Shown here: piece by piece, positions 61,542-64,000 of the stretch
Layout: the number at the start of each line of letters is the position of its first letter
Position numbering within the stretch: position 1 is the stretch's first letter
NCBI GenBank assembly: GCA_963751515.1
Contig: CAVVUR010000013.1
Location: 202,163-266,162 of the forward strand
From: an uncultured delta proteobacterium
GTDB taxonomy: Bacteria > Desulfobacterota > WTBG01
Direction: 5' to 3'
Length of the DNA: 64,000 nt
The notes under the pieces: model-generated
What the model was told of the DNA's origin: nothing
Databases searched by the model: none
Seen by the model: only the letters and a program-made list of their open reading frames with translations
Made by a program: the position numbers and the translations under genes

Positions 61542-63756
61542 TTACCAGAAGGCGCCGAGGCTGTCACGTATTTTTCTTAAGAGGGCGCTGTTGTCCGAGT
61601 GGCCGGTCATCTGCGCGGTCACCAGGCCGCGTATGGGTTTGCCCAGCAGGTAAAAGTCACCGATGAGATCAAGTATTTTGTGGCGGGCAAACTCTTCCGG
61701 GAAGCGCAGCTCGGTGTTCACCACTTTTTCATCATCGATGAGGATGCAGTTGAGCAGCTTTCCCCCGCTGGCCAGGCCGCGCTTCTGCAGTTCCCCGATG
61801 TCCTTGAGGAAGCCGAAGGTGCGCGCCGGGGCGATGAGGTCCTTAAAGGATTGAGCGTCCTTTAAGGTGAAGGTGAATTCCTGCCTGCCCACGGGGCTGG
61901 GGTAGTTGAGCAGATATTTGACGGTGAAGGCGGGGTGCGGCTCTATGGAAATATACTTGGTGTCCGGAGAGGGATCGCCGACCGCATACTTCTCCTCGAT
62001 GACGATTTCCTCGAGGGGGGCGTCCTGCTCATCGATGCCCGCCTCCTCGATAAGCTGGCAGAATTCAAGCGCCGAGCCGTCCATAATGGGGATTTCGCCG
62101 CTGATTTTGACCTGCAGGTTGCTGATGTGATAGGCATGGAGCACGGCCATGAAATGTTCGATGGTCCGGGCGAAGGTCTGCCCGCTCTTCAGGGAGGTTG
62201 CGTAGTCGGTGGATTCCACGAAGTCGAGATGGGCGGGCACGGTGTCGCTGGTGGTGATGTTGCCGAACACGATCCCGCTGTTGGGCGGCAGGGGAGACAA
62301 TATCAGCCCCGACTTCATTCCCGAATGAAGCCCCTCGCCGCTCAGGACCACGCTTTTCTTGAGCGTTCTCTGGCGGGGACCCGCCGCTGTTTTTTTGCCG
62401 GGTATCAGCTTGATGCCGAAGGTGGCTATATGTCGCTTCAGCGTGTCCTGGCGCATGCCCAGGCTCCGCGCAGTGGCGGGAATGTCGACGTTGTGCTTCT
62501 TGAGGTGGAAGATGAGAAACTCCTTTTTCCAGGCATTTTCCGCCTCCTTCATGGAAGTGTATTTGTCGAAGGCGCGCGTTTTTGAAGCGGCGAGCTCTCC
62601 CCGCATGGAAAGGGGCAGGCTTTCCAGACCGATTTTGACGGTGGTCACTACGGATGTTACCAGCCGCTCGGCAAAATTTTTAAGCTCTTTGCTGTTGCCC
62701 GGCCAGTGGTAGTTCATCAGCGCTTCCTGTGCCTCTTCATCCAGTTCTTTTACCTTCCGGCCGTGTTTTTGCGAGAACCCCTCCATGAAGAAGGTGAAAA
62801 TCTTCAGGATATCATCCTTTCGCTCCCGCAGGGGAGGCAGCACGATGGTGCCCTCCGCCAGCAGCCCATAAAGCTCCTGGTTCAACTTGCCCTCTTTGAC
62901 CATTAAGGCCGGATCGTCAATCGACGATGCCAGGATTCTCGGCTCATTTGCCCTGTCCTGTTTGCCGCCCCCCTTGCTTTTTTTCTTCTTGAGTACCTCC
63001 GCCAGCTCTTCCTGGATGGAAAGAGGCATTTCCTCGATAGTGTCCAGAAACAGGGTCCCCTTTGCCGCCCGCTCCAGCTCGCCCGCTTTTCGGACCAGGT
63101 TTTTCCTGGATGTCTGCGCTGCCGTCCCGAAAAGATTGTGGCTCATTTCTTCGGGGGAATAGATGGTGCAGCTGAATTTGATAAAGGGGTTTTTCCTCCG
63201 CGGGCTCTCGTGGTGAATGAGCCGGGCCGCAAACTCCTTGCCCGTTCCGCTCTCCCCGGTGATGAAGAGGTTTTTCCCGGTTTTGGCAAGCTTCTTTATC
63301 TCCTTCTTGACCTGCATGATGGGGAGGCTTTCACCGATGAAATCGTCCGGCTCCTCGATCGCCGGCTCCACCTCCTCGGCCCTGCCCCTTTTTTGTTCCA
63401 GGGCGCTGTGAATGACGGAGAAAATGGAGTCCAGGGAAAGTGGTTTTTCCAGAAAGTCAAATGCACCGAGCTTGATGGCCTGCGATGGCGGTATTCATGG
63501 TCCCGTGTCCGGTCATGATCACCACGTCGAGGTTCTGGTCATATTCCTTGATGGCCTTGAGGGTTTCCATGCCGTCCATCCCCGGGAGCCAGATGTCAAG
63601 AAAAACCAGTTCGGGATTTTCCGAGCGGACTTTCTCCATGGCCTCCTGCCCGTCCTTGGCGGTGAGCACTTCATAATCCTCATCTTCCAGGCTTCCCTTC
63701 ATGGTTTGAAGGATCTTTTCTTCGTCATCGACAATCAGCAGCTTCACTCGTTTCAT
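61542..63756 (-). CDS. lpxC: NtrX-like response regulator (REC, degenerate AAA+, HTH) fused to LpxC; frameshift near 63480
   Basis: [25 protein letters not shown]; then QRTL...[28 protein letters not shown]. Confidence 0.85.
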
Positions 63757-63765
63757 TACCTCTCC

Positions 63766-64000
63766 TTACATCCTGACCGGCAGCTCGATAATAAATTTGG
63801 TTCCCCGGGGATAATTGTCCCTGACCCTGATGTAGCCGTTGTGGTCGGAAATGATGGTGCTCACGATTGACAGGCCAAGGCCCATATTTGACTTTTTGGT
63901 GGAAAAGTAGGGCTCGAAGAGCTTTTCCCGCGTGCCGTGGGGTATGCCGCAGCCGGTGTCGGCTATCTCGATCCGGGCAATGTTAAATATGTGGTCATGG
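63766..64000 (-). CDS. C-terminus of sensor histidine kinase (NtrY-like), truncated by window
   Basis: IADTGCGI...LFEPYFSTK...GLGLSIV...DHNG...GTKFIIELP. Confidence 0.88.
   Translation of the reverse strand, partial: HDHIFNIARIEIADTGCGIPHGTREKLFEPYFSTKKSNMGLGLSIVSTIISDHNGYIRVRDNYPRGTKFIIELPVRM

Follow-up and report, generated by a model that had tools for sequence, protein, structure and literature searches.

LpxC, a drug target, catalyzes the step that commits a cell to lipid A synthesis and controls its flux. In enterobacteria, the stand-alone enzyme is controlled through FtsH/LapB-dependent proteolysis; outside this group, to our knowledge, LpxC regulation is largely open. Here, we describe a gene in which LpxC is the C-terminal part of an NtrX-like response regulator. 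The gene lies on the minus strand (63756..61542) of a 64,000-nucleotide stretch of DNA from an uncultured delta proteobacterium (Desulfobacterota; GenBank assembly GCA_963751515.1, contig CAVVUR010000013.1, positions 202,163 to 266,162), called the window below.

A closely related control system has been described from Desulfovibrio, in the same phylum, in which a kinase (DVU2931/Dde_3000) and an NtrC-family sigma-54 activator (DVU2934/Dde_3003) act on lpxC alone (PMC3333781, PMC4045070). The only binding site of DVU2934 in Desulfovibrio vulgaris is upstream of lpxC; the lpxC gene of Syntrophobacter fumaroxidans is found directly upstream of the orthologous operon (PMC3333781). In a Desulfovibrio alaskensis mutant of the kinase Dde_3000, lpxC, which has a sigma-54 site there, is the sole gene strongly raised (PMC4045070). 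NtrX itself belongs to a class of atypical enhancer-binding proteins and has been reported to act as a repressor (PMC6158489). Loss of NtrYX in Rhodobacter increases lpxC mRNA 8.8-fold, an indirect effect (PMC7240162), and some NtrYX systems have a third component, the DUF4390 protein PlrP, encoded in the order plrP-plrS-plrR (PMC13001219).

A 737-residue polypeptide with a regulator module and LpxC

The gene encodes a receiver (REC) domain, a degenerate sigma-54-type AAA+ domain, a Fis-type helix-turn-helix (HTH) domain, and a complete LpxC. In the window it is split into two open reading frames (ORFs): a 609-residue ORF (61542..63371, minus strand) with Pfam matches to Sigma54_activat (residues 12 to 173), AAA_lid_14 (182 to 263), and LpxC (334 to 601) and, in another frame, a 99-residue ORF (63457..63756) that holds the receiver with its phospho-acceptor Asp (FLDIW). 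The LpxC part scores 272 bits with PF03331 (cutoff, 27) and 248 bits with TIGR00325 (cutoff, 187), close to the 250.7 bits of the intact orthologue from a sister genome, G001 (96% protein identity, 98% complete). The NCBIfam NtrX model reaches its final position at residue 320 of the 609-residue ORF, thirteen residues ahead of LpxC. The initial annotation had described one frame running from the AAA+ and HTH domains into LpxC with no Met at the junction, and this is what we find: the junction contains no ATG, GTG, or TTG and no stop codon.

A run of seven A's (plus strand T7, 62390 to 62396) sits at the junction and is a possible indel hot spot in an assembly rich in one-base indels; separate ntrX and lpxC genes could, in principle, have been joined there by a sequencing error. 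Among 40 relatives, however, 26 (47 to 96% identity) have a single open frame without stops over the whole match; two more are truncated at contig ends, and one has 10 stops. In nine relatives, members of families f2 and f3, LpxC (∼300 residues) and the regulator are separate proteins. Two others, with genomes 87% and 59% complete, have no LpxC match at all. Eighteen intact orthologues of 720 to 737 residues align across the junction, with a linker of 10 to 13 variable residues, and two independent sequencing runs each provide a contig (record 5 of X1, record 29 of X4) that spans the A7 run without a gap. A database search with the LpxC part as the query was limited to proteins of 405 to 1,290 residues. 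All 120 clusters listed have LpxC and AAA+ domains, and 109 also have REC; the 11 without REC are all shorter than 700 residues. These proteins come from Desulfobacterota/Thermodesulfobacteriota metagenome bins and are annotated as either "NtrX" or "UDP-3-O-acyl-GlcNAc deacetylase." With open frames in homologues, alignments, and listed clusters, gap-free contigs, and no start codon available for a separate LpxC, an artifact at the A7 run has a vanishingly small probability, and we regard it as excluded. The stop and separate start that would have undone the claim are absent; the fusion is real. The linker is the least conserved stretch of the protein (mean pairwise identity, 0.27; dN/dS, 0.20 to 0.45), and its pLDDT is low in the AlphaFold2 (AF2) model of the G001 protein (residues 452 to 457).

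The break in REC has a different origin. Alignment to G001 shows a surplus base at 63483, which is not part of a homopolymer, and the contigs of three studies (X1, X3, and X4) lack it, at depths of 12/12, 23.4/23.4, and 13/13; no further indel is listed between 61400 and 64000 in the run contigs. Because this base is absent from the X1, X3, and X4 contigs, we conclude that the REC break is an assembly error. The assembly of the window's genome, G000, consists of 18 contigs and is 73.8% complete; from 57.8 to 64 kb of the window, it differs from G001 by 21 indels of one or two bases. A programmed or otherwise biological frameshift is ruled out by the absence of base 63483 from the contigs of all three studies and from G001. 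Thus, of the earlier description of REC, the intact phospho-acceptor Asp stands and the frameshift does not. Without the extra base, the gene translates into 737 residues with a single terminal stop: one genuine polypeptide, ordered REC, pseudo-ATPase AAA+, HTH, and LpxC.

Sixty-eight orthologues were compared at the residue level. The receiver residues D10, D11, D54, and K104 are the same in all of them, and T82 occurs in at least 90%; together with the PF00072 match, this phospho-acceptor set places the domain among response regulator receivers. The AAA+ domain presents a mixed picture. The Walker A Lys is present in 67 of the 68 sequences, the Walker B Asp in 37, and a Glu at the next position in just two; Lys stands in for the sensor II Arg in 67, the FRxDLYYRL stretch is lost, and a variable, gapped stretch occupies the position of the GAFTGA loop. 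We take these positions to be the Walker B pair, sensor II, and the hydrolysis arginines of described AAA+ proteins. The missing GAFTGA and the LFLDT version of Walker B, both pointed out at the outset, are seen in the window, and the domain has neither the GAFTGA nor the hydrolysis residues of a functional sigma-54 bacterial enhancer-binding protein. Because the Walker B pair, GAFTGA, and the sensor II Arg were lost while the P-loop was kept, the AAA+ domain is, judging from these residues, a retained pseudo-ATPase of the "atypical enhancer-binding protein" kind and no sigma-54 activator. The AAA+ domain is still under constraint, with dN/dS values of 0.11 to 0.24; those of REC are 0.02 to 0.22. 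The AF2 model of the G001 protein places the HTH helices at residues 402 to 420, 425 to 432, and 436 to 445.

The regulator module had been called NtrX-like. In favor of this name, the best solved match is Brucella NtrX both by sequence (E value, 9.8e-73 over residues 5 to 448) and by fold (E value, 3.7e-38), and the module has the NtrX-type architecture of REC, AAA+ without GAFTGA, and HTH with an NtrY-type kinase as a partner. Against it, the intact G001 protein scores 336 bits with the NCBI NtrX equivalog NF051870, whose cutoff is 600, even though this is its best N-terminal family. As a side observation, contig depth rises to 338 to 344 over the Walker A region (63227 to 63313) in two DNA runs; the conserved P-loop draws contigs of other organisms there, and the peak is no feature of the gene.

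In the LpxC part, E533, H534, T646, H692, K693, D696, D700, and H719 (G001 numbering) are invariant among the 68 orthologues, and all are present in the window; from the motif context, we take them to be Escherichia coli E78, H79, T191, H238, K239, D242, D246, and H265, zinc ligands or catalytic residues. The TIEH, HKILD, and GH motifs (the last as MTGH) noted initially are all in place. The AF2 model superimposes on solved LpxC structures with target-normalized TM scores of 0.84 to 0.94 and root mean square deviations of 1.8 to 2.5 Å, and dN/dS is low (0.04 to 0.07). In the orthologue alignment, the chain ends directly after the last LpxC helix, with no long tail. G000 and the relatives with the fusion each have one PF03331 locus (in G016, as two pieces at contig ends). 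The search for a stand-alone second lpxC that had been suggested yielded none in G000 (73.8% complete) or in any of these relatives, of which G001 is 98% complete; LpxB and LpxK were found in G000. The fused LpxC is thus the only one found in this organism and looks active, a predicted UDP-3-O-acyl-GlcNAc deacetylase. It is 36 to 42% identical to the stand-alone LpxC proteins of relatives.

Nine LpxC positions (G001 470, 483, 489, 540, 550, 566, 618, 672, and 717) are at least 90% conserved in fused proteins and are shared with at most 10% of stand-alone ones; for example, K550 replaces E/D and C566 replaces V. These are candidate contact or regulatory sites.

The NtrY-like kinase announced upstream is indeed there, in the same orientation, and its stop codon lies 9 bases before the REC start. 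The whole gene encodes 771 residues and extends beyond the window to C13:268243 (window coordinate 66081; extended-locus ORF L105 3929..6244, minus strand). NtrY_N, HAMP, PAS, HisKA, and HATPase_c domains make it an NtrY-type sensor kinase by domain set; the NtrY_N match is weak (27.7 bits; cutoff, 23.2), and the kinase reaches no NCBIfam equivalog cutoff. An NtrY-like kinase lies at most 95 nucleotides upstream in 24 of 26 loci with this architecture, corresponding to 21 of 23 distinct genomes.

Distribution and ancestry of fused LpxC

Domain models were built from the orthologues, and classes were scored over the LpxC genes in fetched loci. Three architectures emerged, and Pfam confirms one example of each. 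The long form is the REC-AAA-HTH-LpxC protein described above. A mid form, from Desulfomonile and Nitrospinaceae, has REC, AAA+, and LpxC without HTH. The short form, of ∼415 to 455 residues, consists of REC, a disordered linker of 30 to 60 residues, and LpxC, with neither AAA+ nor HTH; it is found in Syntrophobacter, Desulfocapsaceae, Thermodesulfovibrionia, Thermoanaerobaculia, and others. With the fused-type LpxC model, stand-alone LpxC proteins score 180 to 236 bits, and every complete ORF above 300 bits also has an upstream REC. All 20 phylum-sample loci picked for an LpxC match of at least 50% identity proved to be REC-LpxC fusions.

The fused enzymes separate cleanly from the others in a quick maximum-likelihood tree (IQ-TREE) of 120 LpxC domains, whose rows were chosen by hand and with a pattern scan and are no census. 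One branch (SH-aLRT, 100) divides 52 fused from 68 stand-alone domains. Nested among the former, 24 long forms group together (support, 90), with one long-branch row falling outside. In this tree, fused LpxCs of long and short form from Thermodesulfobacteriota, Nitrospinota, Nitrospirota, and Acidobacteriota are one clade. We also searched a library of 1.84 billion proteins; of the top 50 representatives, clustered at 50% identity, every one has LpxC. REC is present in 35, Sigma54_activat in 20, and HTH_8 in 7; five start with LpxC, and several are fragments. Below ∼280 bits, the matches are stand-alone LpxC proteins or LpxC-first fusions, and LpxC-first proteins of 426 to 464 residues occur only among these lower matches. 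In all, the databases contain hundreds of copies of the fusion under automatic names. Separately, a Hydrogenedentota record (L099 5992-8410) contains tandem LpxC genes of 450 residues, with extra C-terminal sequence, and 303 residues.

The initial annotation knew of no characterized example, and our literature searches likewise turned up no report of LpxC fused to a receiver or to NtrX. In a term search, the words "fused" and "fusion" were absent from a review of lipid A regulation published in 2025 (PMC12444477).

The relatives in which the two genes are separate hint at how the fusion arose. In the unfused genome G019, the order is lpxC, DUF4390, a kinase of 751 residues, and a regulator with GAFTGA, a Walker B DE, and HTH; the kinase is 50% identical to that of the fusion over 713 residues. 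In five of the nine unfused relatives, the best match to the N-terminal part of the fusion is a regulator encoded 3 to 4.6 kb from lpxC. A sigma-54 -24/-12 element is found 28 to 67 nucleotides before the LpxC domain in seven of eight unfused loci, and none (allowing up to 2 mismatches) was found in 18 kb around the G001 fusion. With lpxC directly upstream of the regulator operon and a sigma-54 promoter before lpxC, the unfused relatives match the published Desulfovibrio layout.

About 130 to 150 nucleotides ahead of the sigma-54 element, unfused loci (L103 and L128 to L133) also have a conserved imperfect palindrome, GTGTG...(T-rich)...CAACAC; similar to the published DVU2934/Dde_3003 site, it is probably the enhancer of the unfused system.

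These observations suggest an origin in an lpxC-dedicated two-component system, in which an NtrY-like kinase and a sigma-54 activator would have switched lpxC on. The regulator would then have been fused to its target enzyme; after fusion, sigma-54 contact and ATP hydrolysis may have decayed, whereas purifying selection would have maintained the enzyme along with its receiver, P-loop, and HTH. Kinases from fused and unfused systems are interspersed in the kinase tree, and one fusion plus transfer and displacement in place both appear compatible with the kinase and LpxC trees. Taking distribution and ancestry together, we tentatively propose, at close to an even chance, that REC-LpxC proteins are a widespread, uncharacterized class of response regulators in the four phyla named above, born when an lpxC-dedicated sigma-54 activator was fused to its target, and that the long form, an enzyme that also binds DNA, links transcription to catalysis within one chain.

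Possible modes of control of LpxC

We think it reasonably probable that the regulator captured its target and that phosphorylation of Asp54 by the kinase acts on LpxC activity or assembly. The kinase would phosphorylate the receiver, and a change in receiver packing or dimerization state would alter LpxC activity or assembly, as the CheB receiver does with its esterase, so that lipid A flux would be set at the protein level. The effect could be activation or inhibition. In addition, the long form is probably a DNA-binding protein of the NtrX kind, an atypical enhancer-binding protein of sigma-70 type. We argue for direct action on LpxC because the receiver of the short form has no other possible output. 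The idea of direct two-component control of lipid A, raised in the initial annotation, is strengthened by the Desulfovibrio systems dedicated to lpxC (PMC3333781, PMC4045070) and keeps the status of a proposal.

Alternatively, the N-terminal part could be only an NtrX-like, sigma-70-type transcription factor and LpxC a co-translated passenger, tethered for stoichiometry or co-expression, with catalysis independent of phosphorylation. This would fit the strong constraint on the HTH (dN/dS, 0.06 to 0.12), the flexible linker and low pTM (0.45) of the full-length model, and the nearest solved protein, NtrX, an atypical enhancer-binding protein reported to be a repressor (PMC6158489). Short forms from several phyla, however, keep an intact receiver and LpxC without a DNA-binding or any other output domain, and mid forms without HTH retain REC, AAA+, and LpxC. 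We therefore consider a passive tether unlikely.

The amount of LpxC, rather than its activity, might be the controlled quantity. Receiver-controlled proteolysis has a precedent in RssB, and the receiver, with or without the pseudo-ATPase, could serve as a phosphorylation-dependent degron or adaptor site through which proteolysis in the manner of FtsH/LapB would set LpxC levels. The fused LpxC stops after its last helix and lacks a long tail, and the E. coli LpxC level is governed by proteolysis (cited in PMC3333781). The sequence, however, indicates no protease partner, and we judge control through stability to be a rather doubtful account.

Finally, the enzyme could be the sensor. PutA and BirA are precedents for enzymes that act as regulators, and occupancy of LpxC by substrate or product could be a signal to which the HTH responds with altered DNA binding. 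Here, the HTH and the enzyme do share one chain and are both conserved, and the presumed ancestral regulator had lpxC as its sole target (PMC3333781). Yet short and mid forms keep the fusion without an HTH, and a search upstream of the operon gave no conserved binding site, making such a trigger enzyme very unlikely. We therefore retain phosphorylation-dependent action of the receiver on LpxC as the favored reading.

Several points weigh against this reading. The family is known here from sequences and models. In the full-length AF2 model (pTM, 0.45), the domain contacts are unreadable, and the linker ahead of LpxC is short, variable, and modeled with low confidence. Strong purifying selection on the HTH counts as well: because the HTH is so constrained, the N-terminal module may still act mainly as a transcription factor, the tether being passive. 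No NtrY-like kinase adjoins the gene in 16 of 24 short-form loci or in any distinct mid-form locus. RNA-library contigs (X15) cover the gene in part; their depth is zero over 62183 to 62617, and the junction is uncrossed. The genome of the window is only 73.8% complete. The presumed orthology of the N-terminal module and DVU2934 is based on gene neighborhood and promoter type, and kinases of fused and unfused systems mingle in the kinase tree, while the fused LpxCs form a clade of their own. The short-form AF2 model has a pTM of 0.71; a complex prediction for its receiver and LpxC domain gave a score of 0.00 against a mark of 0.32, which speaks neither for nor against binding.

The fusion points to a direct, so far unstudied switch on outer-membrane synthesis. 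If the favored reading is true, a receiver attached covalently to the cell's only LpxC, encoded beside a sensor kinase of the membrane, would control the enzyme in a simple and new way. The family would also be a clear example from nature of a regulator that was fused to the one target it had and then lost the parts it no longer needed. Because the family is common in uncultured bacteria of sediment and soil, it may be a major natural route for tuning outer-membrane synthesis.

Gene neighborhood and comparison with known systems

Features of the locus are collected in Table 1.

Table 1. Positions of the parts of the fusion gene and of the adjoining kinase gene in the window
Feature	Coordinates	Strand	Basis and remarks
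LpxC domain (QRTLKKS...LLRKI)	61569..62372	minus	PF03331, TIGR00325, translation; stop codon 61542-61544
Junction and linker	62373..62420	minus	16 residues; no start or stop codon; A7 run (plus strand T7, 62390-62396)
Fis-type HTH, three helices, C-terminal DNA-binding domain of the NtrX-like module	62421..62552	minus	Aligns to the end of both Brucella NtrX and the NtrX model
Degenerate sigma-54-type AAA+ plus lid	62583..63338	minus	PF00158, 120 bits; PF25601, 68 bits
Walker A GESGTGKE; Walker B LFLDT; GAFTGA absent	63234..63257; 63039..63053	minus	AAA+ domain motifs
REC domain	63390..63756	minus	Start ATG 63756-63754; PF00072, 89.8 bits; broken by extra base 63483
NtrY-like kinase gene, 3' end	63766..64000	minus	HATPase_c at 63766..63999; gene continues past the window

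Upstream of the kinase gene, past the window end (L105 ∼6260 to 6290, minus strand), there is a sigma-70-like TTGCAA-N17-TATAGT, a consensus match only, which is kept in G000, G001, G003, and G009 (loci L105, L102, L134, and L022). A look-alike of the GTGTG...CAACAC palindrome before the kinase in G000 and G001 was considered as a regulator site and dropped, as it is absent in G003. DUF4390 was not found in G000 (73.8% complete) by a search that was also silent in control genomes.

The neighborhood of the kinase is rich in cell envelope genes. Divergent from it (L105 6364-8556, plus strand) is a gene for a 730-residue protein with two Amidase_3 stretches and Big_1, a peptidoglycan amidase; its G001 counterpart consists of two 364-residue ORFs, followed by a phosphoglucosamine-mutase-like gene. 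On the other side of the fusion, the methylmalonyl-CoA mutase gene (59794-61452) contains 12 of the 21 indels and is in several frames here, while it is an intact 515 residues in G001. The ychF ORF (58693-60162, plus strand) has 489 residues, although its C-terminal domain stops at residue 362; its stop was probably removed by an indel at 59784 relative to G001. For broken genes in G000, assembly error is thus the first reading to consider. Farther away are a gene for a small HU/IHF-type DNA-binding protein (57953-58264, minus strand; PF00216, 85 bits) and, at 57069-57747 on the plus strand, a HEPN-domain gene (114 bits) overlapping a nucleotidyltransferase-domain gene, with the look of a HEPN/MNT toxin-antitoxin pair.

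How does the fusion protein compare with described proteins? Stand-alone LpxC proteins (E. coli, Pseudomonas aeruginosa, and Aquifex aeolicus) are alike in fold and in catalytic and zinc-binding residues, and the equivalog cutoff is passed; the present protein differs by an added 460-residue N-terminal signaling module, a separate clade, and the nine signature positions. A known LpxC fusion, the bifunctional LpxC/FabZ (PRK13188), likewise has LpxC within a longer chain, but there LpxC is N-terminal and followed by the dehydratase, whereas here it is C-terminal. The present protein scores 203 bits with PRK13188, through its LpxC part only, against a cutoff of 465, and Pfam detects no FabZ domain in the window ORF; it is therefore no member of this family.

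On the signaling side, response regulators with enzymatic outputs include the CheB esterase, the PleD/WspR cyclases, and RpfG. The CheB-type layout of a receiver, a flexible linker, and a catalytic domain is the same as in the short REC-LpxC forms, with the difference that the output here is a lipid A biosynthetic enzyme. Brucella abortus NtrX (PDB 5M7N, 5M7O, and 5M7P) shares REC, AAA+ without GAFTGA, and a Fis-type HTH with the long form; it retains the Walker B Asp-Glu and the FREDL stretch, both of which the LpxC-fused family has lost, and the present protein carries a complete C-terminal LpxC besides. As in Bordetella, where PlrS/PlrR work with the periplasmic DUF4390 protein PlrP, a DUF4390 gene precedes the kinase gene in the unfused kin. 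The Desulfovibrio system, finally, pairs a kinase with an NtrC-family regulator of lpxC alone but acts through transcription, with separate regulator and enzyme; here, both are in one chain, in which the sigma-54 machinery appears dead, and no sigma-54 promoter was found around the G001 fusion.

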